A DNA stretch of 63,820 nt, filler included, from Myxococcota bacterium (lineage in GTDB: Bacteria > Myxococcota_C > UBA6777), in NCBI GenBank assembly GCA_023150835.1. It is 4 parts of 4 records of this genome, joined end to end, with 100 filler letters (N's around TTAATTAATTAA, not from the genome) between each part and the next. Parts side by side here need not be neighbours in the genome. Positions count along the whole stretch, not along the records: positions 37,787 to 56,144 come from JAKLKB010000136.1; 3 more parts are not named here. One strand, given 5' to 3'. Shown one piece after another: positions 31,094 to 54,241 of the stretch (the first letter of the stretch is position 1; each line of letters opens with the position of its first letter). The notes beneath the pieces were generated by a model that was given only the letters and a program-made list of their open reading frames with translations, did not search any database and had not been told where the DNA came from. The position numbers and the translations under genes were made by a program.

Positions 31094-34000
31094 TTAGCGA
31101 AGGCGGCGGATCACGGCGTTGTTGTAATCGGTAAAGAGAAGATCGCCGTTGGGGGCCAAGATCAGGCAGATGGGATAGTTGAGGAAGGCGTTCACGCCGA
31201 TACCATCGCGGAATCCTGCGCGAGAATCTCCGCCTACAGAGGTGACATTGCCCGTTGTATCGAGTTTTCGGAGGCGGTTGTTGGTGCGCTCGCCGATAAA
31301 CAAGTTTCCGTTGGCATCAAAGGCAAGGCCCACCGGATCTTGGAATCGTGCGGTGGCTGCGGGTCCATCGAGCAGTCCAGCCGTTCCGCTGCCTGCGACG
31401 GTCGTCACTTGGGCGAAGTTGGTCACACCCAAGTTGACCATGCGGATACGGTCGTTGTACTGGTCCGCAACGTAGAGGTTCCCGTTGGGGCCGATGGCAA
31501 GAGCGCGTGGATAATAAAATCGTGCCCCTGTTCCGATACCATCAAGGAAACCGTAAGTTGTCCCTGCGAGGGTAGAGACGACACCGGCAGCGGTGATCAT
31601 GCGGATGCGGTGGTTGTTGCTATCGCAGACGTAGAGGTTCCCAACGCTGTCGAAGAGCAGATGCGTCACACTTGAACTAAAGCGTGCGTTGGTCAGCGAG
31701 CCGTCTGTGACCCCCGAAGACGTTCCGCCCGCAAAGGTCGTCATATCGCCGTTGGCATCGATCTTTCGGATGCGATAGTTGCCGGAGTCGGCGATGAAAA
31801 GGTTGCCGCTGGCATCAAAGACAAGGGCTGTGGGGGAGTTGAGTCGGGCTTGGAGGCGCGGTCCATCAAAGAATCCAGCAGCGCTTGTTCCTGCAAAAGT
31901 TGTCACGTTGCCAGTCATCGCATCAACGCGGCGGATCACGTGGTTGCCTGTGTCGGCGATGTACAGGTTGCCGCTGCTGTCATAGGCCATGCCTTGCGGA
32001 TTATTGAATCGAGCAAGTGTGCTGCTTCCGTTGGTGAAACCTCGGAAGAAGCCGCGCCCGGCGTAGGTCGTCACGTTGGCTTGAAGGTCGATCTTTCGGA
32101 TGCGATGATTTTCGCTATCCGCGACATACAAAAAGCCGCTGCTGTCGGACTTGATGCTAAAGGGGCCGCTGAATCGAGCGGCGGTGCCGTTGCCATCGAT
32201 GAAGTCGCTTGTGGAGGTCGATCCGCCTGCGTACAGGATCACGTCGTAGGTGGTACCGTTGAGGTGGATGCGGCGGATCGAGTTGTAGCGTTCGTCTGCG
32301 ACGTAGAGATAGCCTGCGGAGGTTATGGCCACATCGTAAGGATAATAAAAGCGTGCGGAACTACCGATGCCATTGGTGTTTCCAGCAGTCCCTATCCCTG
32401 CAATCGTTGTCACGTTGCCGGTAGTGTCGATACGACGGATGCGGTGGTTGTTGGTGTCGGCAACATAGACATCGCCGTTGCTGGCGACGACAAGACCACG
32501 AGGATAGTTGAATTGCGCGGTGGCAGCAGGGCCATCCAAAAAGCCGGCGATGCTTGTTCCCGCATAAGTTGTCACGTTGCCGAGCGTATCGACTTTTCGG
32601 ATGGCGTTGTTTCCGTATTCGGCGATGTAAAGGTTGCCTTGGGTATCTGTGGCAAGGCCGTGAGGATTGCGTAAACGTGCGGTGGTGAGGGCGTCTCCGT
32701 TGACATAACCGATCGTTCCTGTGCCGGCATAAGTGGTCACGTTGCCGGTGGTGTCGATTTTTCGGATACGGTGGTTGTTGTAATCGGCGACAAAGACGTT
32801 GCCAAACGCATCCACCGCGATCCCTGTGGGGGCGTTAAAAGAGGCGGTGTGTGCGGGTCCGTTGAGCATGCCCGCGATGCCGTTTCCTGCGATAGTCGTG
32901 ACATTGCCGTTGGTATCGATTTTTCGGATGCGGTGGTTGTTGTAATCGGCGACAAAGACGTTGCCAGCGGCATCGACGGCCACAGCATAAGGGGTATAGA
33001 AGTTGGCGATGCTACCGCCTCCATCACGCAGTTGTGGGGTTCCGACGATCGTATCCATCACGTTGCCGCTGGCGCATTGGCCTTGGAAGCAATGCGTGGT
33101 GGGGGAACAACCATTTCCGCAGCTCCCGCAGTTTTTGTCGTCTTGGAGGGTGTCTGTGCAAGCGGTCCCGCAAACAGTCTTTCCGACGGGGCATTCGCAG
33201 ACGCCGCTTTCGCAGGATTGCGAGGCAAGACAGGCATTTCCGCAAGAACCGCAATTGTTTTTGTCTGTTGTGGTGTTCGAGCACACGCCGTTGCAACGGG
33301 TGGTTCCGACGGGACAGGTACATTGTCCTGTTTGGCAGAACTGACCGCCACCACAGAGATTTCCGCATTGTCCGCAGTGAGCGGGATTGGTTTGGGTGTC
33401 GACGCAGACGTTGCTACAAGCGGTGAGAGGGGCGTTGCAGCCGCACGTTCCAGCGAGGCACAGCAGGTTGTTGGCGCAAACATTCCCGCATGATCCGCAG
33501 TGGCTTTTGTTGGTTTGGCCGTCGACGCAAGTCGCGCTGCAATAGAGGAGGTTGTTGGGGCAGAGGCATTGACCGCCTTGGCAGGTGCGACCATTGGTGC
33601 AGATCGTCCCGCAGCCACCGCAATTGTTGTTGTCCGTTTGGTAATCGCGGCACTGGTTGGCGCAGAAGTTTTGACCTGTGGGGCAGGTGCAAGCCCCTGT
33701 TTGGCAGATGCGACCGCCTGTACAAGCGTTGTTGCAACCGCCGCAATGGTCTTTATCGGTTTGGTAGTCACGGCATTGTGCGTTGCAGAAGTCTTGTCCT
33801 GTGGGGCAGTTACACACGCGGTTTTGGCAGACACGGCCTCCCGTACAGGCATTTCCACAAGTGCCGCAGTGGCTGTTGTTTTGGATGATATCGACGCATT
33901 GGTTGCCGCAAAAGCCTTCGCCTTGGGGGCAGACACATTGTCCATTTTGGCAGGATTGGCCCGTACCGCAGGCGTTTGCACACGCTCCGCAGTTCGCAAC

Positions 34001-35887
34001 GTTGATTTGCAGATCGAGGCATTGGCCATTGCAGAAGGTTTGGCCTTGGGTGCAGCGGCATTGCCCGTTTTGGCAGAATTGGCCGCCAGTACAGGCGTTT
34101 GAACACGCTCCGCAGTTGGCGACATCGGATTGTCCGTCAACACAGCGACTGTTGCAAAAGAGCAGACCATCGGGGCATTTGCACGCGCCTTTTTCACAGG
34201 CTTGTCCGAGTGGGCAGGCGGTGCCGCATTGTCCGCAGTGTAAGCGATTGAGCTGGAGGTCGGTGCAACGGCCATCACAGCGCACCAACGGCGATGGGCA
34301 GACGCAAGCCGCCGCTTGACAAGACTCTCCCGGGCTACAAGCGGATCCGCACTTTCCGCAATGAAGCTCGTTGGTTTGGGTGTCGATGCAACCGCCAAAA
34401 CACGCGCTTGGGGTGCTTGGGGGACATGCGCTGATACAAGTTCCTTGGGAGCAGTATTGGCCTTGTGGGCAGAGATTCCCGCAGTTTCCGCAGTTTGCCG
34501 CATCGGCTTGGACATCAATGCAGCGTTTGTTGCATTCGAGCTGCCCTGTGGGGCATTTGCAGATCGCGTTGTCGCAAAGCTGCCCGTCGGGACAGGCTTG
34601 GCCGCATCCGCCGCAGTGTAGGCTGCTTTCGTTGGTGTTAAAGCATCCACCAAGACAAGTTGTGGGGGTTCGAGCGGGACACGACAGCACACAAGCACCG
34701 TCGTTGCAACGCTGTCCTGCGGGGCAAGCTTGGCCACATCCACCGCAGTGAGCGCCGTTGCTTTGGGTATCGATGCAGCTTCCGTTGCAATCGGTCAGTC
34801 CGGGGGCGCATTGGCACTTGCCTTGACGACAGATCGCGCCGATCCCGCACTTGTTTCCGCACGATCCGCAGTGTGCAACATCGTTGTCAAGCAGCGCACA
34901 ATAAGTATCGCAGAAGGCGTAGCCTTGGGGACAAGGGTTGATACACGCACCGCTTCGGCAAGTTTCGCCGCTGGGACAGGTGGTTCCGCACTTTCCGCAG
35001 TGTTTGGGATCGGTTTGGGGGTTGGCGCAAGTACCGCTACAAGGGATCTCGCCTTGGGGGCAGTTGAGTTGGCAGGTCTTGGCAACACAGACTTCGCCGT
35101 TTGCACAGGCTTTGTCGCATCCACCGCAATGTTGGGGACTCGTTTGGATATCGACGCAAGAGGTTCCACAGCGGGTTTCGCCAGCTTTGCAGGGTTGGAC
35201 GCAAGCCCCTTTTTCGCAAGCGTCTCCTTGGGGACAGAGTTTGTCGCAAGCCCCACAGTGCGAGGTGTTGGTTTGGGTATCGACACACGAAGTTCCGCAA
35301 ATTGTTTCTGTGGAGCCGCAACCGGCCTTGCATACGCCCGCTTGGCAAGATTCGTTGGCTGTGCAAGCTTTGCCGCAGCCGCCACAGTGAGCCGAGTTGG
35401 TTTGAGTGTTGACACAAGTCCCGTTGCAATCGGTCTCATCTGCTTTACAAGTGGGCGTGACTTTCTTTTTGCAAGCACCGGCCTCGCAGGATTCATCGGA
35501 GGCGCAGGCTTTTGCGCAAGCGCCACAATGGGCGGGGCTGGTTTTGGTATTGACGCAAGTCCCGCTACAATCGGTCTCATCAGCTTTGCAAGTGGGCGTG
35601 ACCTTTTTTTTGCAAGCACCGGCCTCACAAGATTCGTCGGAGGCGCAGGCTTTTGCGCACACGCCACAATGGGCGGGACTGGTTTGGGTATCGACGCAGG
35701 CTTCGCCACAAGTGAGCTTGGGAGGGGGGCAGACACAGGCTCCTGCCTGACAGGTTTTTCCCGATGTACAGGGCTTGCTATCGCTGCAAGCCTCGGGCGG
35801 TGAGGTCGGTTCGCAAGCGATCAAGATCACGGGCAGCCACAAAAAGGCGAAGAGACGCATCAGCAAGTTTCGAGGTGCGCAATACAT
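31094..35887 (-). CDS. Large lipoprotein with ~20 Cys-rich (C.DTQT...HCG.CG..C) repeats and C-terminal NHL-repeat propellers
   Basis: Lipobox LIAC; myxobacterial Stigma1/MXAN_6577-like Cys repeats; NHL repeats (F..P.G.A.D..GN.YVAD..NHRIRKID). Confidence 0.88.
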   Translation of the reverse strand: MYCAPRNLLMRLFAFLWLPVILIACEPTSPPEACSDSKPCTSGKTCQAGACVCPPPKLTCGEACVDTQTSPAHCGVCAKACASDESCEAGACKKKVTPTCKADETDCSGTCVNTKTSPAHCGACAKACASDESCEAGACKKKVTPTCKADETDCNGTCVNTQTNSAHCGGCGKACTANESCQAGVCKAGCGSTETICGTSCVDTQTNTSHCGACDKLCPQGDACEKGACVQPCKAGETRCGTSCVDIQTSPQHCGGCDKACANGEVCVAKTCQLNCPQGEIPCSGTCANPQTDPKHCGKCGTTCPSGETCRSGACINPCPQGYAFCDTYCALLDNDVAHCGSCGNKCGIGAICRQGKCQCAPGLTDCNGSCIDTQSNGAHCGGCGQACPAGQRCNDGACVLSCPARTPTTCLGGCFNTNESSLHCGGCGQACPDGQLCDNAICKCPTGQLECNKRCIDVQADAANCGNCGNLCPQGQYCSQGTCISACPPSTPSACFGGCIDTQTNELHCGKCGSACSPGESCQAAACVCPSPLVRCDGRCTDLQLNRLHCGQCGTACPLGQACEKGACKCPDGLLFCNSRCVDGQSDVANCGACSNACTGGQFCQNGQCRCTQGQTFCNGQCLDLQINVANCGACANACGTGQSCQNGQCVCPQGEGFCGNQCVDIIQNNSHCGTCGNACTGGRVCQNRVCNCPTGQDFCNAQCRDYQTDKDHCGGCNNACTGGRICQTGACTCPTGQNFCANQCRDYQTDNNNCGGCGTICTNGRTCQGGQCLCPNNLLYCSATCVDGQTNKSHCGSCGNVCANNLLCLAGTCGCNAPLTACSNVCVDTQTNPAHCGQCGNLCGGGQFCQTGQCTCPVGTTRCNGVCSNTTTDKNNCGSCGNACLASQSCESGVCECPVGKTVCGTACTDTLQDDKNCGSCGNGCSPTTHCFQGQCASGNVMDTIVGTPQLRDGGGSIANFYTPYAVAVDAAGNVFVADYNNHRIRKIDTNGNVTTIAGNGIAGMLNGPAHTASFNAPTGIAVDAFGNVFVADYNNHRIRKIDTTGNVTTYAGTGTIGYVNGDALTTARLRNPHGLATDTQGNLYIAEYGNNAIRKVDTLGNVTTYAGTSIAGFLDGPAATAQFNYPRGLVVASNGDVYVADTNNHRIRRIDTTGNVTTIAGIGTAGNTNGIGSSARFYYPYDVAITSAGYLYVADERYNSIRRIHLNGTTYDVILYAGGSTSTSDFIDGNGTAARFSGPFSIKSDSSGFLYVADSENHRIRKIDLQANVTTYAGRGFFRGFTNGSSTLARFNNPQGMAYDSSGNLYIADTGNHVIRRVDAMTGNVTTFAGTSAAGFFDGPRLQARLNSPTALVFDASGNLFIADSGNYRIRKIDANGDMTTFAGGTSSGVTDGSLTNARFSSSVTHLLFDSVGNLYVCDSNNHRIRMITAAGVVSTLAGTTYGFLDGIGTGARFYYPRALAIGPNGNLYVADQYNDRIRMVNLGVTNFAQVTTVAGSGTAGLLDGPAATARFQDPVGLAFDANGNLFIGERTNNRLRKLDTTGNVTSVGGDSRAGFRDGIGVNAFLNYPICLILAPNGDLLFTDYNNAVIRRLR

Positions 35888-36030
35888 TTGAATCTCTCCC
35901 AAAATGAGTACAAAACAAGGGACGACGCAAGGATGGTGTGCCTTGTAAGAAAGAGAGAGGAACCTCTCGAAAGCACAACAGATTCAGCATCGAAGAGGAA
36001 GGCTTGTCGTGTCAAGGTGGAGGATGTTTC

Positions 36031-37786: not shown

Positions 37787-37802
37787 AATCACACGGTGTT
37801 TC

Positions 37803-37864
37803 GTAGGGGCAGGCCCCCGTGCCTGCCCTCGATCTGTTGCGTCGGTGACCTCTTCATCGCCATC
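37803..37864 (+). repeat. GTAG-type REP-like element, near-identical to 4-64
   Basis: GTAGGGGCAGGCCCCCGTGCCTGCCCTCG.TCTGTTGCGTCG.TGACCTCTTCATCGC. Confidence 0.7.
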
Positions 37865-37989
37865 TTTTTTGAACGAACCCGTTCTTCGGGCGCGAAAGTT
37901 GAAGAAACTTAGTGATACTTACTTATACCGCAACAAGTTTAAATTTATTGAACAACCCTCGCCCCTCTCACGTCAAAGCGCGCCAAATG

Positions 37990-38120
37990 GTTGGGGTCTG
38001 TACCCTTACCCCCAAAGTGTACAAATAGCTCAATGGCAGAGCGCTTTTTTTCAGAAAAGGATGTTGCGGGTTCGATCCCCGCTTTGTACGACCACTTTGG
38101 ACACTCGTACAGACCCCAAC
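37990..38120 (+). other. Inverted repeats enclosing the tRNA (long precursor hairpin)
   Basis: GTTGGGGTCTGTAC (37990-38003) / GTACAGACCCCAAC (38107-38120), perfect 14 bp; CCAAAGT (38012-38018) / ACTTTGG (38094-38100). Confidence 0.85.
38019..38094 (+). tRNA. Non-canonical tRNA with UCA anticodon (reads UGA); amino-acid identity unknown
   Basis: Acceptor GTACAAA/TTTGTAC, U8-A9, D arm GCTC-AATGGCA-GAGC, anticodon arm CTTTT-TT[TCA]GA-AAAGG, variable ATGTT, T arm GCGGG-TTCGATC-CCCGC, 3' G-A-CCA. Confidence 0.82.
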
Positions 38121-38237
38121 TTTTTTCTCTTCCTCCCCGATCTGCCCGACTTTCCGCAACTTGACAGCTTCCCTGACACCAAGCCAGCCATCTGATATCG
38201 CCTCACAGCTTCCCTCACGCCAAGCCAAAACCATGTT

Positions 38238-38359
38238 GAAAAAGATATGTTCGTGTTGTTCCAAGCGGTGCAGCTGCTGTTTTGAAAAACGTCTGTTCGT
38301 CCCGCCAGCACGGGGTCAAGGGGTTGCAACCCCTTGCGGGGCGTGGTACCTCGCCCCAC
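38238..38359 (+). repeat. Copy of ~120-bp double-hairpin element
   Basis: CACGGGGTCAAGGGGTTGCAACCCCTTGCGGGGCGTGG..GCCCCAC. Confidence 0.65.
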
Positions 38360-38464
38360 AAAGCACCCCAAACACCCCAAGCACCCCAGTAAGATTGAAG
38401 AAGGTGCATGACAGCGCGGGCGATCTCGTGTATGTTTTCGGCCAAACCGAAGGAGACCGCAGCG

Positions 38465-39712
38465 ATGGAGATCGTTCGTACCGGCCCGAGAAAACGCTTT
38501 ACAGGGATCAGCCGACTGTATCCGATGGACACCGCCATCGGTACGTTGCGTGTGATCGAAGATGCAGAGATCCTTGTGGAGGGCAAACATATCGTATGGG
38601 TGGGGAAGCGCGGCGAGGGGATGGGGCCGATCGAGGGGGAAGAGCGCATCGAGATGAGCGGAGTGATCTGCACACCGGGATGGATCGATGCGCACACTCA
38701 CTTGATCTGGGCGGGTAGTCGGCAGAATGAGTTTCGCGCCCGCCTCCAAGGACAAAGCTATCTCGATATCGCCCGCGCAGGTGGCGGGATCATGTCCACC
38801 GTTCGGGCGGTTCGTCAAACAGATACGTCCAAGCTGATCGCTGAGGGCCGCCACCGATTGGAGCGGATGCTTGGCTATGGCATCACGACCCTTGAGGCCA
38901 AAAGCGGATACGGCTTGTCGACAGACGCCGAGATCAAGATACTACGCGCCATCCGCGCTTTGCATGAGGAAGGCCCCCAAGAGATCAGCGCGACTTTTTT
39001 GGGCGCTCACACCGTCCCTACTGAATACAAGCACGATCGGGCTTCCTACGTCTCCTTGGTTTGCGAAGAGATGCTGCCTGCCGTTGCAGAGGCAGGATTG
39101 GCTGATGCTTGCGATGTGTTCGTCGAAGAAGGCGCATTCACGCTCCAAGAAGCGCGGCGCATCCTCCAGCGCGGCCTCGATCTGGGCCTCCAGTCGCGCC
39201 TGCACGCCGATCAATTGTCATCAGGAGGCGGAGCCGAACTTGCCGCAGAGATGGGTGCATTGAGCGCCGATCACCTCGAAGAGATCAGCCCAACGGGCAT
39301 TCAAAAGATGGCAGAAGCCCGTGTGACGGCCTGTTTGATCCCGGGTTCGACTTTTTGTTTGCGCCAACATCGCTATGCCCCTGCCCGCGCAATGATCGAT
39401 GCAGGCATGCAGATCGCCCTTGCGACCGACCTCAACCCCGGGACAACTTGCAGCGAGTCCTTGCCTTTTCTTGGGACGCTTGCTTGTTTGCAGATGGGCC
39501 TTTTGCCCGAAGAAGTCTTGTACGCCGTCACGGTGGGGGCGGCACACGCCCTCGGACGAGCCGATCAGATCGGGCGGATCGCTGTCGGCTACCAAGCGGA
39601 TCTGGCGTTCTTTGCGGCTCCCGATATCGATTACTTGTTTTACCATTACGCCGTCCTCCACACCCAGTCGGTCTACAAACACGGGCGCAAAGTCTGGCCG
39701 TCAAGCCCCTAA
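38465..39712 (+). CDS. hutI: Imidazolonepropionase
   Basis: PGWIDAHTHL, GGGIMSTV, EAKSGYGL, FLGAH, LHADQL, SADHLE, ATDLNPG; AGGAG before ATG 38465. Confidence 0.95.
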   Translation: MEIVRTGPRKRFTGISRLYPMDTAIGTLRVIEDAEILVEGKHIVWVGKRGEGMGPIEGEERIEMSGVICTPGWIDAHTHLIWAGSRQNEFRARLQGQSYLDIARAGGGIMSTVRAVRQTDTSKLIAEGRHRLERMLGYGITTLEAKSGYGLSTDAEIKILRAIRALHEEGPQEISATFLGAHTVPTEYKHDRASYVSLVCEEMLPAVAEAGLADACDVFVEEGAFTLQEARRILQRGLDLGLQSRLHADQLSSGGGAELAAEMGALSADHLEEISPTGIQKMAEARVTACLIPGSTFCLRQHRYAPARAMIDAGMQIALATDLNPGTTCSESLPFLGTLACLQMGLLPEEVLYAVTVGAAHALGRADQIGRIAVGYQADLAFFAAPDIDYLFYHYAVLHTQSVYKHGRKVWPSSP

Positions 39713-39844
39713 GCTCGCTGCGATCAGAACAGACGACCGCAGCTCAAGCACACTTCCCCTCGGTGGAAACACCGACAAATCCCCAACAAGTCCTCGCGGT
39801 TTCTTCACCGGCGGACGAAAAAAGAAACACGGAGAAAGCGAAGT

Positions 39845-41806
39845 ATGCCACAACAACGAGATCGATGGACACGAGTACAAAAGCGCATCGTTGTCTTGTT
39901 CGGCTTCATCGGACTTTGGTGGTTGAGTGGACTTGGAGATCAATCCGCGAGAGCAGACGACTTTGTGTTGCCGGGCGACGATTCCCCGAAACCCAAAGCA
40001 CGCAAACGCGCCGTTGCTCCAAAACGCCAAGCACAGGGGCTTTTACCGATGTACGGCCCCCCCAAAGAATGGCAGTCTTTCCGTAGCACCTCCCAAGTGA
40101 CGTGCGCGATCCAAGAAGGCGATAACATCTGGGCAGGAACCCTCGATAGCGGTGTGATCCGTTGGAGCATCCGCTCGCGTGGTTATCGCTTTTATGTCCC
40201 CAAAGAAACTCTCGCCAAAGCCCGCCATGTCACCTCTCTGGCGATGGATCGCCAAGCCAACCTGTGGATCGGAACCAAAGGATTTGGGGTGGCGATGCTC
40301 AAAGACGGTGGAACGCGCTTTACATGGTATCAATACAAAAACGGCTTACCGAGCAACGATATCCGAGGCTTGGTTCGCGACAACAACGGCGCGATCTGGG
40401 CCGCCACCAACCGAGGTGCTGCCCGCTTCGATGGAAAACGCTGGAAGAAATTTACCCGCAAACAAGGGCTTCCAGATGGGGACTTGTTGGCGACTGGGCT
40501 CGACAGCAGCGGAAACGTCTGGTTTAGCCCCAACATCTCGAATCCCTTTTATTACGACGGCAGCCGCTTTCATCGCCTCAAAAAATTCCCTTGGACGGGT
40601 TCCACTTGTATCACCAACGATCGCAAAGGTGGTTTGTGGTTTTGTAACGCCCAAGGAGCCATCCATCACGACAGCGAACGCACCCGCGCTTACGACACGA
40701 CTCACGGCTTGGCTGGCCCCGTGATTCAGGCGATCCATGTCGACGCGGGTGGCGGTGTATGGTTTGGCACAAAAGACAACGGCATCAGCTATCTACGCGA
40801 GGGGCGCTGGACCACCATCAACCGCCGTCAAGGGCTCACCAACCTCGATATCCGCGCCATCACAAGCGGCCCCGCAGGTTCCATCCTCGCCGCGACACAC
40901 CTCAACGGCATCGCACATTACCAAAACCGCCGATGGTACAGCTTTTCCACAGGGATCGTCGGAAACAAGATCCACGCAGTCGCCCATGCCCACGATGGCT
41001 CCGTCTGGCTCGGAACAGGTTCGGGAGCCAGTCGCTATCACAACGGATATTGGTACAACTACGCCAGCGAGTTCACCACGCCCGATGTTCGGTCATTTAC
41101 ATTTGATCCGACAGGCGCGGTGTGGATCGGAACCTTTGGCGCAGGGATCTATCGACACCAAGGGCGCGAATGGAAATTGACGGATGTGCTTTCAGGGATC
41201 GCAAGCAACAACATCGTGGGAACCCACCTCACGCCCGAAGGACTCTGGTTGATCCACGAGCAAAAAGGCGCAAGCCTGTTTGATGGCAAAGAATGGAAGC
41301 TGTTTGACAACAACAACACGGTTGGCCTGCTCGACCCCGCCTATCCGGCCCAAGCGACGCACCTTGACAAAGACATGACCCTCTACATCGGGTTCAAGGG
41401 AGGGGGCGCTGTGAAACGCCCGTTGCGTGGGCGTTGGCAACGGATCGGCTTTATGAGCGGTGCGGGTGGGCGCGGTGTGGTCAACAGCATCAGCAGCGAG
41501 GATGACGGGGCCTTGTGGTTTGGAACGAAGATCGGACTGTACCGAATGAAAGGCAACGACACCAAACACTTTACCAAAAAAGACGGATTACCCGACACCC
41601 AAGTGCTGGCCGTTGCCACCGAAGGAAACAAAGTCTGGATCGGCACAAACAAAGGCGTGGCCTGCTTCGATGGCACCTCATGGCGCTCTTTTAACAAAGA
41701 GATGGGCCTTGTCTCCGATAGCATCAGCCTGATCAGCGTATCCCCCACAGGTGAAAAATGGTTCGGCTCTCCGCTTGACGGGCTGACCATTTATCGCGGC
41801 GAATAA
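39845..41806 (+). CDS. Exported multi-propeller (two-component regulator propeller-type) protein
   Basis: Signal peptide; repeated GL.SN.I..I..D..G..W.GT..G motifs. Confidence 0.8.
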   Translation: MPQQRDRWTRVQKRIVVLFGFIGLWWLSGLGDQSARADDFVLPGDDSPKPKARKRAVAPKRQAQGLLPMYGPPKEWQSFRSTSQVTCAIQEGDNIWAGTLDSGVIRWSIRSRGYRFYVPKETLAKARHVTSLAMDRQANLWIGTKGFGVAMLKDGGTRFTWYQYKNGLPSNDIRGLVRDNNGAIWAATNRGAARFDGKRWKKFTRKQGLPDGDLLATGLDSSGNVWFSPNISNPFYYDGSRFHRLKKFPWTGSTCITNDRKGGLWFCNAQGAIHHDSERTRAYDTTHGLAGPVIQAIHVDAGGGVWFGTKDNGISYLREGRWTTINRRQGLTNLDIRAITSGPAGSILAATHLNGIAHYQNRRWYSFSTGIVGNKIHAVAHAHDGSVWLGTGSGASRYHNGYWYNYASEFTTPDVRSFTFDPTGAVWIGTFGAGIYRHQGREWKLTDVLSGIASNNIVGTHLTPEGLWLIHEQKGASLFDGKEWKLFDNNNTVGLLDPAYPAQATHLDKDMTLYIGFKGGGAVKRPLRGRWQRIGFMSGAGGRGVVNSISSEDDGALWFGTKIGLYRMKGNDTKHFTKKDGLPDTQVLAVATEGNKVWIGTNKGVACFDGTSWRSFNKEMGLVSDSISLISVSPTGEKWFGSPLDGLTIYRGE

Positions 41807-41881
41807 CACGGCCCTCCCCATCCCAAACAAGACGACCCTCTCGACCACAATCCATCATCCCCCCACACGGAGTCCAAACAG

Positions 41882-43489
41882 ATGCAAGCCAACCAAACAT
41901 GGGAGCAATTTTGCGAAAGCTACTGGTGGGACAAGGCTGTCCCATTGCGCCTCGATCTAAGTCGGATGGGCATCCCTGCGGCTTTTTGGAAAGAGATCGC
42001 CCCCAAGATGCAAGCGGCCTTTGAAGAGATGCAACAACTCGAACAGGGCGCGATCGCCAACCCCGACGAACAGCGGATGGTTGGGCATTATTGGTTGCGC
42101 GATCCCAAGCGCGCTCCTGATCCGACGATCCGCGCCGAGATCGAGCAAAGCGTCCAACGCATCAAAGAATTCGCACATGCCATCCACACCGGCCAACTCC
42201 GCCCCACCACCCAACCCACCTTTACGCGGTTTTTGCAGATCGGCATCGGTGGTTCGGCCCTTGGGCCTCAACTTGTGTACGATGCTCTGCGATCTCCTCG
42301 CGACGAGATGGAAGGCTTTTTCCTCGACAACACCGATCCCGATGGGATCGACCGATTGATCGCCGATCTGGGTGAACAGATCGCTTCGACCTTGGTCTTG
42401 ATCGTCTCCAAGTCGGGCGGCACCAAAGAAACAGCCAACGGGATGTTGGAGATCAAAGCAGCCTTTGAAGCGCGGGGACTGTCTTTCGAGCGCCACGCCG
42501 TCGCGATCACAGGAGCAGGAAGCAAACTCGACGATCTGGCCCAACAGACGGGAATGTTAGACACCTTCCCGATCTGGGACTGGGTGGGGGGCCGCACCTC
42601 CTTGTTTTCGCCTGTTGGTTTGTTGCCTGCGGCTCTCCAAGGCATCGACATCAATCAACTGCTCGCAGGAGCCGCCGTGATGGACGAATGCACTCGCCGC
42701 GCCGATCTCAACAACCCCGCTGCTCGGCTCGCAGCAAGCTGGTACTTTGCGGGGGATGGACGTGGACAACGTGCGATGGTGGTCTTGCCCTACAAAGATC
42801 GGCTGCTTTTGTTGAGCCGCTACCTACAGCAACTCGTGATGGAATCGCTCGGAAAAGAACTCGACCGCGATCAACAAGTCGTCCACCAAGGGATCGCTGT
42901 CTACGGCAACAAAGGTTCCACCGATCAACACGCCTTTGTCCAACAATTGCGCGACGGAGCCGACGATTTTTTTGTGACCTTTGTCGAAGTCCTCTTGGAT
43001 CGCAAAGGCCGATCATTCGAGGTCGAAGACGAGATCACCAGCGGCGATTACCTGCTTGGCTTTTTGTACGGAACCCGACAAGCCCTCTGGGAAAGCGGAA
43101 AACGCTCACTCCACATCACTCTCCCCGAGACTTCCCCCACAAGTCTTGCGATGCTGATCGCTCTCTTTGAACGGGCCGTCGGCCTTTACGCTTCGCTGAT
43201 CAACATCAACGCCTACCATCAGCCGGGCGTTGAGGCAGGAAAGAAAGCCGCAGGTGCGTTCCTTGCGCTGCAAAAACAGCTACTCACCTTCCTACGCGCC
43301 CATCCCCACGAAGCGTTCTCTATCCCGCAGCTTGCCCGTTCCCTCCAATACCCACAACAAACCGATGCCCTGTTTTATATCGCCGAACATCTCGCTGCCA
43401 ACCAACGCTTGATCGCCTCGGATGCACCGCCACTCGCACGCACCTATCAATTCAAAAGCCCACCCACCACGAGCCGTCCGCTTCATTAA
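41882..43489 (+). CDS. pgi: Glucose-6-phosphate isomerase
   Basis: IGIGGSALGP, SKSGGTKET, DWVGGRTS, QQLVMESLGK, NAYHQPGVEAGKK. Confidence 0.95.
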   Translation: MQANQTWEQFCESYWWDKAVPLRLDLSRMGIPAAFWKEIAPKMQAAFEEMQQLEQGAIANPDEQRMVGHYWLRDPKRAPDPTIRAEIEQSVQRIKEFAHAIHTGQLRPTTQPTFTRFLQIGIGGSALGPQLVYDALRSPRDEMEGFFLDNTDPDGIDRLIADLGEQIASTLVLIVSKSGGTKETANGMLEIKAAFEARGLSFERHAVAITGAGSKLDDLAQQTGMLDTFPIWDWVGGRTSLFSPVGLLPAALQGIDINQLLAGAAVMDECTRRADLNNPAARLAASWYFAGDGRGQRAMVVLPYKDRLLLLSRYLQQLVMESLGKELDRDQQVVHQGIAVYGNKGSTDQHAFVQQLRDGADDFFVTFVEVLLDRKGRSFEVEDEITSGDYLLGFLYGTRQALWESGKRSLHITLPETSPTSLAMLIALFERAVGLYASLININAYHQPGVEAGKKAAGAFLALQKQLLTFLRAHPHEAFSIPQLARSLQYPQQTDALFYIAEHLAANQRLIASDAPPLARTYQFKSPPTTSRPLH

Positions 43490-43592
43490 AAGCAGCCGCT
43501 GGTAGAAACCTCGCATCCTCCGCAGTGATCACTCTTTCACACCAAAGAAGCCTTCGCTTGTCTACCCACAATCTCCACAAAGGAGCCTTTGC

Positions 43593-44573
43593 TTGTCTAC
43601 CCACGATCTGAACGTCTTGATCCTCGCCGCAGGCAAAGGGACGCGTATGCGTTCACAGCTTGCCAAAGTTCTCCATCCCATTGGCGGGATCCCACTCGCG
43701 GCGCATCCCGTCCACCTTGCACAATCGCTCTCTCCCCAACGCATCGTCTTGATCATCGGCCACCAAGCCGAGGCCGTCCAAGCCCAACTCGATGCGCGTT
43801 TTGGCCAAGGCACCTTGCGCTACGCCCTCCAAGCCGAACAACGCGGCACCGCGCATGCCGTCCAATGCGCCCAACAACACCTCCTCGATGGCCCCCGTGA
43901 AGTCTTACTTCTGTGCGGAGACGTCCCGCTTTTGAGCGAAGACACATTGCGGGAGATGCTTCGCCGAAAAGACCAAACCAACGCAACCATCGGCATGATC
44001 ACTTTTGAAGCCGACGACCCCACAGGCTACGGGCGGATCGTCCGAGACGAACAAGGCAAGGTCCAAAAGATCCAAGAACACAAAGACTGCAACACCACCG
44101 AGCGCTTGATCAAAGAATGCAATGCTGCGATCTACCTCGTCGCACGGGACTTTTTGCTCGATGCCCTCGATCGTATCGACAACCACAACGCCCAAGGTGA
44201 ATTCTATCTCACCGATATCGTCAAACTCGCTGTCCAACAACACCGTCACGTCGAAGCCTTGATCGTCAAAGATGCCGTCGAAGTCATGGGCGTCAACGAT
44301 CGCGCACAACTCGCTTTCCTCGAACAAGAATGGCTCCATCGACGCCAACAAGCCCTGATGAAACAAGGCGTCACGTTCCATCTTCCCCAAACCATCTGGC
44401 TTGATTACGACGTACGCATCGACTGCGACGCCGAGATCGGCCCCCACTGCGCCTTTTACGGCCAAACGCACATCGGCGAAGGCGCTCAGATCGGTGCGGG
44501 TGTTTACCTCAAAGACACGCAGATCCCCGCCCATACGACGCTTTCACCTCGCACCACACGCGGCATGGCGTAA
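43593..44573 (+). CDS. glmU: GlmU-like N-acetylglucosamine-1-phosphate uridyltransferase, short form lacking most of the acetyltransferase domain
   Basis: LAAGKGTRMRS..KVLH, Q.EQRGTAHAV, GDVPLL, GYGRIVR, NAQGEFYLTD, GVNDR; only 326 aa; TTG start after AAGGAG. Confidence 0.8.
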   Translation: MSTHDLNVLILAAGKGTRMRSQLAKVLHPIGGIPLAAHPVHLAQSLSPQRIVLIIGHQAEAVQAQLDARFGQGTLRYALQAEQRGTAHAVQCAQQHLLDGPREVLLLCGDVPLLSEDTLREMLRRKDQTNATIGMITFEADDPTGYGRIVRDEQGKVQKIQEHKDCNTTERLIKECNAAIYLVARDFLLDALDRIDNHNAQGEFYLTDIVKLAVQQHRHVEALIVKDAVEVMGVNDRAQLAFLEQEWLHRRQQALMKQGVTFHLPQTIWLDYDVRIDCDAEIGPHCAFYGQTHIGEGAQIGAGVYLKDTQIPAHTTLSPRTTRGMA

Positions 44574-44759
44574 AGCTTCGCGCTTCAGAAAAGACCAAAT
44601 CACGCCAACAACAGTCTACAAGGTGAGTTCGTTCGCTCCTGTTATGCCACACAAAAAACAATTGACGCAGATCGACGATACTATCAGGAGTGCATCGCAC
44701 AAAATGCTACGAAATCCGCAGGGTGTGTGATAAATCCGCAGGGTGTTTGATCGAAAAAC

Positions 44760-44802
44760 GTAGGGGCAGCCCCCTGTGGCTGCCCAACAATAGGGCGTCT
44801 AC
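44760..44802 (+). repeat. GTAG-type REP palindrome
   Basis: GTAGGGGCAGCCCCCTGTGGCTGCCC..AGGGCGTCTAC. Confidence 0.7.
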
Positions 44803-44941
44803 ATCGGATCATACCGACACGCAGATCACGCACCTTGGATATCGTATGAGTGAGGTTTCACCCGCATCAAAGAGCAAAAAGCGCGTATCTACCGAAGAAA
44901 AGAACGATCGTTGAGTTCAAAAAGCAAAGAGATCGCAAGCG

Positions 44942-45841
44942 ATGGAGGTTTTCGTGGAAACAAAACGATGGTGGGGATGGCTGTTGAGTTGCCTTGTCGG
45001 CTTGGGGTGGAGTGCTTCACCCGCTCAAGCGACCTTGTTGGTATACCGCAGCCTCGACCAACAGATCCAAGCCGCAGCAAGCATCGTGCGTGGCCGTGTC
45101 TTGCACAAGCACAGCTTTATCTACCACGGCAACGGACACATCTACACGGACGTTCGTCTACACGTCCTTGAAACGCTCAAGGGCCAAGCCCCTCACGAAC
45201 TGATGATCCGTCAACTCGGTGGAACAGTCGGAGAGCGTACCACCTTGATCGCGGGTGCTGCGCGGTTCTCGCTCGGTGAAGAGGTCGTCGTCTTTTTAGA
45301 AGCCCTTCGCCAACCCGACTTCCTCTTTGTCCAAGATCTCGGCGCTGGAAAATACACCGTATTTCTCCACGAAGGACGGACCTTGATGCGCCGATCCGTC
45401 GAGGGTCTCGCCTTTTACCGCCACACCCCCAACGCCGCTGACCGCATCCGCACCCCCCAATTCAGCGAACGCCCGATGGATCTCGATATGTTGCGCCAAC
45501 GCGTTCAGATCCTCCAGCAACAACCGACGCTTTATCTGCTCAAGCCCCCGACACAGCGCTTTGAAGAACGGCTGCAACGCGCCAAAGATTCGATCACACC
45601 GCGCCTACCCGTCCCGCAACCTCTCCCCGCCTTCCAAGATCCCCGTCATCCCGTCCGTTCCATCTACGACCAAAGCACACAAAAGACAGTTCCCCTGCGC
45701 GTCTTACAAAAACAACGGCTGCCTTTTTTTGTCACCCCGCTGCGCGGCGCACTCCTCCAAAAACGCCTTCGTTCCGCTCCTTCTCTGCTCTCTCCCACCA
45801 CCTCCAACTCACCATCTCCCTCGCAAGGAGGCTCCCGATGA
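44942..45841 (+). CDS. Exported hypothetical protein (matrixin-associated type)
   Basis: Signal peptide (AQA-T); IVRGRV..IYT....V.ETLKG..GGTVG..G.ARF..GEEVVVFL pattern; ATGA overlap with next gene. Confidence 0.7.
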   Translation: MEVFVETKRWWGWLLSCLVGLGWSASPAQATLLVYRSLDQQIQAAASIVRGRVLHKHSFIYHGNGHIYTDVRLHVLETLKGQAPHELMIRQLGGTVGERTTLIAGAARFSLGEEVVVFLEALRQPDFLFVQDLGAGKYTVFLHEGRTLMRRSVEGLAFYRHTPNAADRIRTPQFSERPMDLDMLRQRVQILQQQPTLYLLKPPTQRFEERLQRAKDSITPRLPVPQPLPAFQDPRHPVRSIYDQSTQKTVPLRVLQKQRLPFFVTPLRGALLQKRLRSAPSLLSPTTSNSPSPSQGGSR

Positions 45842-48156
45842 TCCGCATAATCCGCACACACCACACCTCCACGACTTCATCACGCAAAATTGCAACACCC
45901 ACGAAGCATCGTATATTCGGGATTTTTGTGGTCTTGATAGGCTTCTTTGCGTTGCCTTCTGCCCATGCCTACAAGCAGATCCTCACCAACACAGGCAAAA
46001 CCGCCAAGTGGCCGAAGATGCCGATTACATGGTTCTACAACCCCAACGGCTTCACTCAAATCAGCCAACAACAAATGATCGCCGTGATGCAGAATGCCTT
46101 CCAACAATGGGCTTCTCCCACATGCACCAGCTTCCGCGCAAACTACGGCGGACTCAGCCAAAGCCTCTGGAGCCAATTCGATCAAAACAACGTACTCGTC
46201 TGGAATAGCACGATCCCTAGCGCGCAATTCCCTACAGCACTCGCCCTGATGGTCCCCAATATCAATCCGACGACGGGCGACTTCCTTGATGCCGATATCA
46301 TCTTCAATTCCAGCTACCAGTGGTCCACCCAGCCTGTCGGCCAACAATTCGATGTGATCGGGACAGTCACCCACGAGATCGGTCACGTCGTCGGCCTCGA
46401 TCATACCAACGTCACCGATGCGACGATGTTTCCAACAGCAGCCCCCGGCTTATGCCCTTGCCGCACCCTCAAACAAGACGACATCAACGGCGTTTGCGCG
46501 ATCTACCCCAGCGGAACCAACCCGGGCGGAGGCAAAGCAGGCGCAACCTGTTCTGTTCCCGCCGATTGTGCAAGCGGATTCACCTGTGTTCTCGCAACGC
46601 CACAAAGCACCTCGGGCGTCTGTCTCACCGATTGCACCAATACAGGCGGCTTTTGCGCTTCTGGCGAAAAATGCACCGCCCTCACCACAGGGACCTCCGT
46701 TTGCGCCTGCCAAAGCAACACCGACTGCAACAACGGTAAAACTTGCCAAAACTACCAATGCACGGGCGGCTCCACAGGTGGAAATCGCAAGCTTGGCGAG
46801 GTCTGCGATGCCCAAAACCTCTGCGCCACAGGACTGAACTGCGTGATCCTCCAACAAGGCGCAAACAGCGGCATCTGCTTTGAAGACTGCACCACCACAC
46901 GCGCCTGTCCGAACGGCGAAACCTGCAAATCCCTCACCAACGGCACCGCTGCTTGCGCTTGCCAAGGCGACAGCGAATGTAGCGGCGGAAAAGTTTGTAC
47001 CTCCAGTCTGCGATGCAGCAACACCAACAATCGACGCAAACTCGGCGAACCTTGCGACACCAACATCCTTTGTGAAGCAGGTCTGACTTGCGTTTCCACT
47101 TCTCAAGGCGCAACTGCGGGCGTTTGCCTCGCTTTGTGTACAACCACAGGCCCTTGTGTCACGGGAGAAAAATGCTACGACCTCGGCAACGGCGAAAAAG
47201 CCTGTGCTTGCCAAAACGACAGCGATTGCACCAACGGTAAGTCTTGCCAAAGTTTCCGCTGCATCGGCGGTTCCAACCAAGGCGCACGCGAAGGCGAAGC
47301 CTGCAATCCCAACTGCGAAGCCGGACTCAACTGCTTCGGAAACCCCACCAACGGCGGGATCTGCGTCCGCCCCTGTCAGTCCAACACAGAATGCACCGGG
47401 GCCAACAAACGTTGCGATACCAACAACCGCTACTGCGTCCCCGAAAATCCGGGAACTCGCAAACGCGGCGAAGTCTGCGACAACCAAAATCTCTGCATCA
47501 CGGGACTTTTTTGTACCGTCCTCCAACAAGGCGCATCCACGGGCATCTGCTTTCCTGTCTGTAACCCCCAAGCCACGGCCCCTTGCCCGGGGGGTGAACG
47601 ATGCGCCCAACTCTCAGGCAGCAACAGCGGTGTCTGCATCTGCCAACAAGACAGCGAATGCAGCAGTGGCGGAACCTGCCAACAGTACATCTGCAAAGGC
47701 AGCGTCAACCCCGGAACTTGCACCGTCGACACCGATTGCTCCTCGACCGATATCTGCCGAAACACCCGCTGCGTCCCGCGCAATAGCTGCCAAAGCAACG
47801 CCGACTGCGGCCCCAACCTCGTCTGTCAAAACAACCTCTGCACCACCAAACCCAGTCCCGAACCTCCCCCACCCGACGGCGGCCCCAACCCCGGCTCCTG
47901 TGATCCCGCCTGTGCAGCAGGCACCTATTGCCAAAAAGGCCGCTGCATCACCACTCCCGAATGTCTCAAAAACGAAGACTGCAACTCTCGCTCGACCTGC
48001 CAAGAATACGCTTGCATCCCCAACCCACTCCCCGAAACCACACCCCCCAAAACAGGATGCCAATCCCACGACACCACCCCGCTCTCTCTTTTCCTACTCT
48101 TCCTCCTGCTCGCCCTCGTACCCTTCTTCCGCCAACAACACCGCCCACGTTTCTAA
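45838..48156 (+). CDS. Matrixin (M10) family zinc metalloprotease with Cys-rich repeats and MYXO-CTERM-like tail
   Basis: HEIGHVVGLDH and Met-turn ATMFP; Cys-rich repeats; C-terminal GC...hydrophobic helix...basic residues. Confidence 0.88.
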   Translation: MIRIIRTHHTSTTSSRKIATPTKHRIFGIFVVLIGFFALPSAHAYKQILTNTGKTAKWPKMPITWFYNPNGFTQISQQQMIAVMQNAFQQWASPTCTSFRANYGGLSQSLWSQFDQNNVLVWNSTIPSAQFPTALALMVPNINPTTGDFLDADIIFNSSYQWSTQPVGQQFDVIGTVTHEIGHVVGLDHTNVTDATMFPTAAPGLCPCRTLKQDDINGVCAIYPSGTNPGGGKAGATCSVPADCASGFTCVLATPQSTSGVCLTDCTNTGGFCASGEKCTALTTGTSVCACQSNTDCNNGKTCQNYQCTGGSTGGNRKLGEVCDAQNLCATGLNCVILQQGANSGICFEDCTTTRACPNGETCKSLTNGTAACACQGDSECSGGKVCTSSLRCSNTNNRRKLGEPCDTNILCEAGLTCVSTSQGATAGVCLALCTTTGPCVTGEKCYDLGNGEKACACQNDSDCTNGKSCQSFRCIGGSNQGAREGEACNPNCEAGLNCFGNPTNGGICVRPCQSNTECTGANKRCDTNNRYCVPENPGTRKRGEVCDNQNLCITGLFCTVLQQGASTGICFPVCNPQATAPCPGGERCAQLSGSNSGVCICQQDSECSSGGTCQQYICKGSVNPGTCTVDTDCSSTDICRNTRCVPRNSCQSNADCGPNLVCQNNLCTTKPSPEPPPPDGGPNPGSCDPACAAGTYCQKGRCITTPECLKNEDCNSRSTCQEYACIPNPLPETTPPKTGCQSHDTTPLSLFLLFLLLALVPFFRQQHRPRF

Positions 48157-48533
48157 TACCCATCCCCATCAGAGCAACCCGTCGTCAATGACCCGCCCAT
48201 CTCGGGAGCGGGCTTGTGATGGTTTCGCTCTGCTCGCTTTGTTCGCTTTCCGTGTCTTCCGTGCATCCTGTGGACTGCTGTCTTTTTCCTTGACATCTTC
48301 AAGTCTTTCGACTAAAACTGCTCCACTCTTTTTGTGGATAACTGCGGCATCGTGCAAAAAAAGCCGTCTATCCGACCTTTCTTGCTCCAAAGAGTAGCTC
48401 TTCCACGAGACCTCTCTCGCCCTTCCCCACGAAAAGATCTTCGCGATGTCCACCCCCTCTCCTACGCAAACAACGTCTCATCGTTTTCTGTGCGATGCTT
48501 GCGTTCGATCACTCAGTCAAAAGGATTGCCCCC

Positions 48534-48863
48534 ATGTATGCGGTCATTCAAACCGGCGGTAAGCAGTACCGTGTCAAAGAAGGCGACATGTTCTTTGTCG
48601 AAAAACTGCCTGGCGAAAAAAATCAAAAGATCGTCTTTGACAACATCCTGATGGTCAGCGGTGATAGCGGCCTCCAGATCGGAACGCCCACCCTGCAAAC
48701 GGCTCGCGTCGCCTGCGAAGTCGTCGAGCAGTTCCGCGCCAAAAAGATCCTTGTCTTCAAAGTCAAACGACGCAAAAAATACCGCAACCGTCAAGGACAT
48801 CGCCAATACTACACCCGCTTGCGCGTGATGCAGATCGCTGCCGACGGTCAAATCAAAGACTAA
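48534..48863 (+). CDS. rplU: 50S ribosomal protein L21
   Basis: MYAVIQTGGKQYRV...KRRKKYRNRQGHRQ. Confidence 0.97.
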   Translation: MYAVIQTGGKQYRVKEGDMFFVEKLPGEKNQKIVFDNILMVSGDSGLQIGTPTLQTARVACEVVEQFRAKKILVFKVKRRKKYRNRQGHRQYYTRLRVMQIAADGQIKD

Positions 48864-48984
48864 CACACACAAAAAACACACAAAAAACACACAAAAAACA
48901 CACAAAAAAAGCGGATCACATCCTGATCCCTCTTTTTAACCCCCAACGGCCCCCCCAAAGGTCGCGCGGTAGGAGCTCAGACTT

Positions 48985-49266
48985 ATGGCTACAAAAAAAG
49001 GTGGTGGTAGTACCCGAAACGGTCGCGATAGCGCTGGCCAGCGGCGCGGCGTCAAAAAATCTGGCGGCCAAGCTGTGATCGCCGGAAATATCCTTGTCCG
49101 CCAACTCGGAACCCAGTTCCATCCCGGAATCAACGTCGGTATGGGCCGCGATTACACGCTCTTTGCGTTGGTCGACGGCATCGTGACTTTTGAAGTCAAA
49201 GATCGCGGTCGCAAGGCCGTCAGCGTGTACCCCGTCCAAGAAGACAACGCTGTCGCTGCCCCCTGA
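48985..49266 (+). CDS. rpmA: 50S ribosomal protein L27
   Basis: [16 protein letters not shown]...[25 protein letters not shown]. Confidence 0.97.
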
Positions 49267-49359
49267 TCTTTCCTTCCCCGTGTCCTCCCCAACACACTTC
49301 CCCCTCATTCCTTGCCCGAAACACTCTCCTCACAAACAACAACGACGCAAACAACAACC

Positions 49360-49690
49360 AATCCGAGTCCGCGCCACTTCAAGCGGCGCAGCCGTCGGCT
49401 TGAAAACGTCTATTCACCCCGCCAATACGGGGTCAAGGGGGCAAAGCTCCCTTGTGGTACGTGGGGCAACGCCCCATACGCGCCTTGTTAAGGTGGAAAC
49501 CTCGTAGAGTCGGTCTTGATCGCCTTTTTTTTTCTCCCCCCCCCCCTCAATCCCCCCGTGAACGGGGGGAAGTTGGAACGGGCTGCGTCTGCATTTGGTG
49601 CATACAGCGTGCGTCATGAAAAAACAAAATCCCCGATGCTTCCGACTTTCGCTCCCTCCCCTGTTCACGGGGGAGGGCGGGGTGGGGGGC
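49360..49690. repeat. Cluster of dispersed palindromic repeats
   Basis: Double-hairpin element (ACGGGGTCAAGGGGGCAAAGCTCCCTTG..GTGGGGCAACGCCCCA) plus inverted CCCCCGTGAACGGGGG / CCCCTGTTCACGGGGG palindromes, also seen at ~18929-18955. Confidence 0.65.
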
Positions 49691-50126: not shown

Positions 50127-51683
<1,557 letters not shown>

Positions 51684-51719
51684 TCCCCACCCTGATCGCC
51701 CCACACAACGGAGGCTTTT

Positions 51720-54218: not shown

Positions 54219-54241
54219 ACCGCGAACACGAGGACTCTTCC

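Follow-up and report, generated by a model that had tools for sequence, protein, structure and literature searches.

The window analysed here is a stretch of 63,820 nt made up of four contigs of one 7.56-Mb draft genome of a Myxococcota bacterium (GCA_023150835.1; G000, 239 contigs), joined by runs of N. On one of these contigs (C77; JAKLKB010000136.1, positions 37,787–56,144), 200 nt from the contig start, lies a tRNA-like sequence with the anticodon UCA that is enclosed in a long hairpin, referred to below as the UCA unit. The locus comprises the following features, in which G000–G005 denote the six species genomes of the phylum that were compared.

37948–37953, plus strand: −35-like box TTGAAC, invariant in the upstream alignments of G000, G001 and G002
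37969–37974, plus strand: −10-like box CACGTC (its CGT 17 nt after TTGAAC), invariant in the three species
37989–38003, plus strand: 5′ arm of the outer stem, seen as inverted repeat and in the fold; covaries with 38107–38121
38004–38011, plus strand: 5′ side of the internal loop (CCTTACCC, family motif CCUYAC), unpaired in the fold and conserved in the alignments of both lineages and in the G005 units
38012–38018, plus strand: 5′ arm of the inner stem, seen as repeat and in the fold; changes on both sides at 5 of 8 pairs (MAFFT alignment)
38019–38090, plus strand: class-I tRNA body with acceptor GUACAAA/UUUGUAC and discriminator G (Rfam RF00005, ARAGORN)
38051–38053, plus strand: anticodon TCA in a canonical 7-nt loop, UUUCAGA (ARAGORN); arm identical in G000, G001 and G002
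38090–38093, plus strand: 3′ bulge G-A-C-C at the junction of acceptor and inner stem in the fold; a bulge of 4–5 nt in 12 of 12 aligned units
38094–38100, plus strand: 3′ arm of the inner stem (repeat, fold, covariation)
38101–38106, plus strand: ACACTC, forming the 3′ side of the internal loop; the family motif here is RAACUY, with A-C-U unchanged across all 19 units
38107–38121, plus strand: 3′ arm of the outer stem (repeat, fold, covariation)
38121–38126, plus strand: terminator-like T run in the sequence; 12 of 19 units have a run of 4 or more T no further than 12 nt past the stem

The perfect 14-bp inverted repeat described in the initial annotation (37990–38003/38107–38120) is the core of a 19-nt repeat of 89% (37985–38003/38107–38125). 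The inner pair reported with it (38012–38018/38094–38100) is present too, but had been given as 7 bp where the perfect repeat measures 8 bp (38012–38019/38093–38100). RNA folding of 37985–38125 returns the proposed hairpin: a 15-bp outer stem, an internal loop of 8 nt facing 6 nt, and, stacked on the acceptor stem (7 bp), an inner stem of 7 bp; the G-A-C-C at 38090–38093 is bulged out on the 3′ side as had been supposed. The predicted energy is −54.7 kcal/mol, as against −33.5 ± 4.1 for shuffled sequences (z = −5.12), and none of 200 shuffles is as stable. The encoded CCA with a paired terminal A, which had also been proposed, is one place off: the 7-bp acceptor stem and G73 are followed by the letters A-C-C, located within the bulge and helix of the predicted fold. 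The family consensus gives G1 a partner other than C72, namely the C at 38093 within an invariant CAC. Directly 3′ of the outer stem stands TTTTTT (38121–38126), a feature absent from the initial annotation. Considered as a terminator, the unit offers a stem followed by TTTTTT, but its 'loop' would be 103 nt long, and the terminator scan has no entry for it. The leader–trailer duplex is the strongest among 62 ARAGORN calls in the genome (−33.1 kcal/mol; all calls −16.1 ± 6.5), a ranking in which some other high values belong to atypically long, unvetted calls.

The enclosed body is a complete 72-nt class-I tRNA with a short variable arm. Rfam RF00005 matches 38019–38090 with 62.9 bits, above the Rfam tRNA threshold, and the positions read from the sequence are canonical: U33, G37, A15–U48, G1–C72 and the T loop. 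ARAGORN calls a tRNA with anticodon tca at 38018–38094 and labels it SeC because an 8-bp acceptor stem is allowed. The genome harbours its own tRNA-Sec (92 nt) on contig C24 and a tRNA-Trp(CCA) on contig C209.

Approximately 100 nt upstream of the UCA unit, and divergent from it, a gene for a 200-aa protein is found in three species (L017:728–1330, minus strand; L051:10006–10608, plus strand; and G000:C208:3856–4455, minus strand). The protein has no Pfam family and no usable match in the Atlas. The G000 copy lies at the end of contig C208, and the break between C77 and C208 is due to a genome-wide repeat that occupies the first 140 nt of C77 (37787–37926). This repeat is ∼94–140 nt long and present in dozens of copies, often in tandem with a spacing of ∼136 nt and at contig ends. 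Elsewhere in the window, the minus strand at 31094–35902 encodes a 1602-aa protein with ten Stig1-like cysteine-rich repeats and NHL propeller repeats, and GC skew across the window reaches 0.4 and flips with gene direction.

The UCA unit is one copy of a conserved family of tRNA-bearing small RNA genes. Two sister units arranged in tandem on contig C14 of the same genome retain the acceptor GUACAAA/UUUGUA within other flanks and have GUU and GAU as 'anticodons'. When 41 relatives were searched at the DNA level, orthologues of the UCA unit emerged in G001 (98%) and G002 (92%) and paralogues in G002 and G004; the units of relatives are named Asn, Ile, Pro, Lys and Asp by ARAGORN. In an alignment of 12 units, GUGUACAAAU is invariant, as is a CAC that follows the tRNA; the 5′ loop reads CCUYAC and the 3′ loop RAACUY. 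RNAalifold predicts 39 pairs on this alignment, 23 of which display compensatory changes. G1 is opposite A72 in 7 of these 12 units, and several sister-unit loops are devoid of U33 or of a purine at position 37. The UCA anticodon arm is unchanged in G000, G001 and G002, species that are 92–98% identical here.

A covariance model of 136 positions built from the family (R1) was used to survey the phylum, represented by six species genomes of one family. Thirteen matches exceed 100 bits, in four of the six genomes (three each in G000, G001 and G004, four in G002); none does so in G003 or G005. The UCA unit scores 139.3 bits and the best ordinary tRNA 63.3 bits. Rfam 15 contains no family for hairpin-wrapped tRNA units. 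An exact pattern search recovered the family in three assemblies of the genome collection, all from the same phylum, and at three metagenome loci; the same search of 2.9 million viral contigs gave no match, with a pattern that would miss the second class of bacteria described below.

The tandem units stand 3′ of a Ser/Thr kinase–FGE gene in three genera. In G004 they lie 29 nt upstream of a gene for a 640-aa protein on the same strand. Orthologues of this protein (59–61%) are encoded downstream of the units, again on the same strand, at a distance of 3.8 kb in G000 and G001 and 4.7 kb in G002. A conserved gene downstream of the units was considered and rejected: the 590-aa protein of G000 and the 577-aa protein of G002 that follow the units are unrelated to the G004 neighbour (23% identity). 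In G000 the 640-aa protein has a single counterpart, on contig C14, away from the UCA unit on C77.

The C-terminal 90 aa of the 640-aa protein correspond to EF-Tu domain 3 (E = 5e-14), with EGGRHTP kept. EF-Tu domain 3 touches the T stem of tRNA. The remainder of the protein is more elusive at the sequence level: Pfam vWA_Ro60 (PF25045) reaches 26.2 bits, a weak score against a cut-off of 27.7, and Pfam TROVE (PF05731) finds no match in the six phylum genomes at E = 0.001, a search in which controls matched in 2 of 14. A structure model from 4 sequences had been unusable (pLDDT 46.5); an AlphaFold model with 112 sequences attained a pLDDT of 90.7 and a pTM of 0.80. Foldseek aligns this model best with Xenopus and human Ro60, Deinococcus Rsr, a TROVE domain and a Thermus-phage Ro60 (E = 1e-13 to 6e-9, probability 1.00), collinearly over about 550 columns with a TM score by target of 0.60–0.65. 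A profile search against PDB sequences retrieves 1yvp (4.4e-4) and 2nvo (0.013). By its predicted fold, then, the neighbour is a divergent Ro60-like protein, a TROVE ring plus vWA domain, fused to EF-Tu domain 3; the assignment to Ro60 is based on the fold and a weak profile match. The predicted helical-repeat ring and vWA domain are shared with Ro60/Rsr (PDB 1yvp, 2nvo, 9nen, 9l5y), but identity is only 13–16%, and the EF-Tu domain 3 is a C-terminal addition of this lineage. A literature search retrieved no paper on a Ro60–EF-Tu fusion.

Shorter paralogues that lack EF-Tu domain 3 are present in G005 (two) and G002 (one). Beyond the phylum, the Ro60-like protein has ∼2,100 relatives of roughly 500 aa, all annotated as hypothetical; the few names given indicate Planctomycetota, Armatimonadota, Chloroflexota and others. 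Twelve clusters of these relatives carry EF-Tu domain 3 (PF03143). Residues ∼297–318 of the protein (L055:13567–15507) include a motif, D-x4-E-x-E-R-G-I-T, reminiscent of switch I, the effector region in EF-Tu domain 1; the match is weak (PF00009, E = 0.14) and the GTPase domain is absent. In genus g1 a calcineurin-like phosphoesterase gene is located directly 5′ of the Ro60-like gene (L055:12589–13557, L052:13889–14752), preceded in G000 by a SIR2 gene.

Both Ro60-like paralogues of G005 are preceded by a related RNA with a long outer stem and the loop CCUSAC/AAACUU. One of the two (51.7 bits) has D, anticodon and T arms, lacks the acceptor stem and corresponds to positions 10–63 of the tRNA model; the other displays the T–hairpin–D order of YrlA (25.2 bits) and keeps the internal loop. 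The YrlA layout and the unpermuted layout thus meet within this family. Upstream of the G002 paralogue (contig C6) no convincing unit was detected: R1 gives no match at E = 1 and the fold is ambiguous.

A survey of 401 genomes sampled across the domain identified one genome outside the phylum, G224, with a Ro60-like protein, and 14 of 151 genomes of the class to which G224 belongs encode one. The GCGATCGC palindromes in these loci suggest that this second class is the cyanobacteria. Twenty-seven loci, at 15 places, were scanned with R1. Whole-model matches of 67.7–92 bits occur at 10 places in 9 of the 14 genomes, on the strand of the gene and 0.2–1.4 kb upstream of it. The fetched loci of the other five genomes contain no unit: G224 (none within 1.5 kb of the gene), G458 and G466, together with G447 and G451, where the contig ends at the gene. 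The build is the same as in the first lineage, with an outer stem, CCYRAY, an inner stem, an acceptor UACAUAC, a D arm, a variable anticodon arm, a T arm, a bulge and AACUUG. ARAGORN assigns the 10 units to Gln, Pro, Ile, Met, Leu (twice), Asn and Ser and leaves two uncalled; 8 different anticodons are represented, and orthologous units bear another anticodon in nearly every genome. Rfam reads such a unit as 'tRNA' only. A link between the EF-Tu domain 3 fusion and complete acceptor/T-helix units, true for the six phylum genomes, is ruled out by this class, in which complete tRNA units lie beside proteins without domain 3.

Two minor elements accompany these loci. Between the main unit and the gene in G484 there is a weaker R1 match (L084:1043–1144, 29.1 bits), ∼30 nt before the Ro60-like gene, a candidate for a second Y-like RNA. 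The other is a 66-aa ORF, ending in IRPEAVYG, whose stop lies 10–45 nt before the unit in the second class (L077:660–860) and in G005 (G005:C41:116778–116975), with 52% identity between the two (E = 5.5e-16). This ORF has no Pfam family, and a query with it found nothing in G000, G001, G002 and G004, the genomes with the EF-Tu-domain Ro60-like protein.

Covariation of the flanking stems in homologues had been proposed in the initial annotation as a check on the hairpin, and it is evident when the enclosing stems (20 pairs) are examined in the MAFFT alignment: 94.2% of cells are paired and 13 of the 20 pairs have changed on both sides, a result equalled in 0 of 500 shuffles, and slid controls do not exceed 55%. 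Adding 9 units of the second lineage to those of the phylum gives a set of 19 units, from which three G001 units (near-duplicates), the G535:C52 unit (T-loop insertion), the two G005 units and metagenome duplicates are omitted. In this set 93.9% of cells are paired and 17 of 19 pairs have changed on both sides, again with 0 of 500 shuffles and with slid controls of at most 48.8%. Within each lineage the 5′ strand of the acceptor is 100% identical regardless of the anticodon, and the anticodon arm ranks near the bottom in conservation (0.51–0.60).

The sequence ahead of the units is also conserved. The pattern GAAC-N16/17-CGT ends 15–18 nt before the UCA unit and before the first tandem unit, two independent loci, in all three species of the genus (6 of 6 loci), with 0.03 occurrences expected per 110 nt. 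In its longer form, TTGAAC-N17-CGT, it lies 15 nt ahead of the UCA unit in the three species and 17–18 nt ahead of the first tandem unit. These boxes, at 37948–37953 and 37969–37974 for the UCA unit, are a putative promoter, with an apparent likeness to promoters of ECF-sigma (stress-sigma) type. As the same boxes precede both loci, one regulator for the UCA and tandem loci is suggested, and transcription would begin immediately ahead of the 5′ arm. Spacing between the tandem units is tight: 6–8 nt separate the T run of one from the stem of the next.

Public sequencing data offer a limited view of transcription. Part of 37940–38420 is present in 20 public runs, and contigs of four RNA-library runs from three studies were mapped on 37930–38700. 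Their cover extends from 38010 or 38026 to 38306 or 38360 in one sample, and over 38063–38230 and 38083–38242 in others, at a depth of 2.7–6.9; the contigs leave 37930–38009 without cover, may include DNA and cannot show RNA ends. Four of them bridge the T run at 38121–38126, so that termination there, if any, is incomplete. A stretch of ∼40 nt further downstream (38282–38323) matches, at 90–95%, RNA-library contigs with a depth of up to 708 that continue into unrelated sequence, and is read here as a probable short repeat or conserved motif common to other organisms.

A small RNA encoded close to a Ro60-like protein invites comparison with Y RNAs. Chen et al. 2014 (PMC4201824) describe the known bacterial Y RNAs as lying no more than about 4 kb from Ro60, on its strand; their paired ends form the Ro-binding stem and they often carry a tRNA-like module. 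The sister units, at 29 nt to 4.7 kb, and the units at 10 places in the second class are similarly close to a Ro60-like gene and on its strand; the UCA unit is on another contig. The initial annotation had set Y RNAs aside on the grounds that the arm order here, D–anticodon–T, is not permuted. This dismissal was premature: in PMC4201824, Yrn1, the partner of Rsr in Deinococcus radiodurans, has the other orientation, with an unpermuted T arm and anticodon-like arm. Yrn1 (RF01053) and the present family share a long stem formed by the ends, which in Yrn1 harbours the Ro-binding site, a module in normal order and a gene upstream of Ro60. According to that paper, Yrn1 differs in the absence of a full D arm, in an 'anticodon' loop of 6 nt and in an incomplete cloverleaf, where the units discussed here enclose a complete tRNA; in addition, the Rsr-binding sequence is not common to the UCA unit. 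RF01053 aligns end to end with 37995–38118 at 25.3 bits (E = 0.01), far below its gathering score of 80, and does not match the three G004 units at E = 1.

YrlA RNAs (RF02553) are more distant in layout. According to PMC4201824 and Wang et al. 2018 (10.1101/312249), they are tRNA mimics with D and T arms, often in tandem, on the strand of a Ro60 gene within about 4 kb, and they are circularly permuted, with a closed acceptor loop, ends at the position of the anticodon stem and no anticodon loop. YrlA of M. smegmatis has a 7-bp acceptor stem, is cleaved by RNase P and receives CCA in vivo (PMC4201824). In the present family, by contrast, the acceptor stem is lengthened by the ends, the order D–anticodon–T includes an anticodon loop and the putative partner protein is undetected by Pfam TROVE. 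RF02553 finds no match in the window at E = 10 and reaches 12 bits in the second-class locus L081, with a threshold of 69 bits. The Rsr-binding motif of known bacterial Y RNAs, GNCGAAN0-1G, is confined to a single unit of 22, in which it falls within the D arm. The three tRNA-mimic families of a 2026 preprint are, judging from its outline, other RNAs. A literature search disclosed no paper on an unpermuted, anticodon-bearing Y RNA, although cyanobacterial RNAs akin to these units may appear in the supplements of Chen et al. 2014.

Given the orientation of Yrn1 and the end-to-end Rfam alignment, the family is read as Y-like RNAs of Yrn1 topology with a whole-tRNA module. Of the possibilities raised initially, suppressor release controlled by a processing stem is a weaker candidate, and an ncRNA of ∼130 nt with a tRNA domain is favoured by the covariation of the enclosing stems and by the linkage of the family to a Ro60-like gene. 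The family would then comprise Ro60-associated, Y-RNA-like, non-decoding tRNA mimics, and the UCA copy would be an orphan member; a probability of about 0.6 is assigned to this reading. Positions 37989–38126 would constitute the gene for an ncRNA of ∼135 nt, in which an unpermuted, whole tRNA fold sits atop a stem formed by the 5′ and 3′ ends, and the Ro60-like ring would hold this stem as in a Y RNA. As the known Rsr-binding motif is missing, the docking site of the divergent Ro60 would be the family's own conserved loop, CCUYAC opposite RAACUY, with flanking pairs of GUG/CAC type. The tRNA module may serve as a stable handle, or as a bait or tether for tRNA-binding factors, and the variable 'anticodon' arm would be the part that differs between copies. 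The orphan copy would have its own promoter-like boxes (TTGAAC-N17-CGT) about 8–10 nt before the stem and a transcript ending at the U run, and presumably would be bound by the same protein.

The canonical body of the UCA copy (62.9 bits, G1–C72 and G73 present), together with the conservation of its anticodon arm in three species, could also befit a latent opal-suppressor tRNA. The hairpin, with or without the Ro60-like protein, would lock the precursor, with RNase P and RNase Z kept off by the extended helix; in response to stress, the stem would be cut or opened, followed by maturation, CCA addition, charging and read-through of UGA, and the sister units would be stored spare tRNAs. The presumed likeness of the boxes to stress-sigma promoters is consistent with such a scheme. 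M. smegmatis YrlA shows that a Y RNA can enter tRNA processing (PMC4201824). However, a single acceptor stem is combined with at least eight anticodons, A72 faces G1 in 7 of the 12 aligned units, and U33 or the purine at position 37 is missing from several loops, a poor match to charging by cognate synthetases. Moreover, almost every genome of the second class has a different anticodon in its orthologous unit, a pattern incompatible with decoding. Of 2398 long ORFs, 1026 end in TGA, more than in any other stop codon, so that a free suppressor would be costly, a circumstance that fits a non-decoding or a tightly locked RNA. The presence of a separate tRNA-Sec and tRNA-Trp(CCA) in the genome is in keeping with a role outside decoding. 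The latent suppressor is regarded as an unlikely candidate, though the next in line. A more speculative proposal, which appears rather doubtful, is that the units are programmable tRNA-shaped guides whose rapidly changing anticodon loop pairs with a tRNA anticodon or codon, each copy supplying one RNA species to the ring, or that the UCA copy is a stress-sigma-driven suppressor store released by tRNA-processing enzymes. If this were true, Y RNAs would have arisen from genuine tRNAs whose acceptor stem became longer, and a Ro60-like surveillance system, so far unrecognised, would be widespread.

Leader–trailer stems of rRNAs and some pre-tRNAs, substrates of RNase III or of RNase P/Z, likewise extend a terminal helix by paired flanks; they are not known to be tied to an internal loop conserved across phyla or to a Ro60-like gene. 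An ordinary tRNA gene, with a processing stem of this type and with the outer stem and U run as its intrinsic terminator, would account for the real tRNA fold and for the T run that follows the stem in 12 of 19 units. It is nevertheless improbable: among the vetted ordinary tRNAs of the genome none has a comparable stem, ordinary tRNAs score at most 63 bits with R1, and neither the synteny with the Ro60-like gene nor an internal-loop sequence conserved in two distant lineages, which a terminator does not need, is explained. The spacing of 6–8 nt from T run to next stem is a further difficulty, in that full termination would silence the second tandem unit. Even less tenable is a small mobile or cassette-borne unit with the inverted repeats as its recombination or transposition ends, a possibility that had been raised for this locus. 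DNA likeness between G000 and G002 is indeed confined to the unit (C77 197–340), and the genome-wide repeat lies 60 nt upstream in G000. Against this, the arms differ in sequence from copy to copy yet stay complementary, covarying rather than keeping one sequence, and each genome has 3–4 copies; the repeat of C77 1–140 is absent from the other unit loci compared (0 matches at 6 loci); the viral contigs have no exact pattern match; and the upstream 200-aa gene, at a contig end in G000 and common to G001 and G002 (64% identity), is a neighbour kept in three species. A mobile unit is therefore very improbable, and the Y-RNA-like partner of a Ro60-like protein is the reading adopted here.

Chen et al. 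2014 and Wang et al. 2018 asked what role the tRNA-like module of bacterial Y RNAs plays and how it originated. The family described here has a complete tRNA, anticodon loop included, as this module, and the putative partner protein includes a piece of EF-Tu known to hold tRNA. The RNA–protein gene pair recurs in two distant bacterial lineages, within an unannotated protein family of ∼2,100 members, and provides a concrete system for how a Ro60 ring and a tRNA fold work together. There are implications for annotation as well: tRNA finders give such genes names like tRNA-Sec, Asn, Ile or Lys, and what looks like an opal suppressor might wrongly be taken to indicate stop-codon reassignment.

Another odd tRNA, outside this family, is located on contig C201 of the same genome (G000:C201:24018–24173; L076:3043–3150) and scores 55.3 bits with the Rfam tRNA model. 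It has 44 nt in place of the 9-nt anticodon-loop region, and its leader and trailer are paired around a 1-nt bulge and followed by TTTTTTT.
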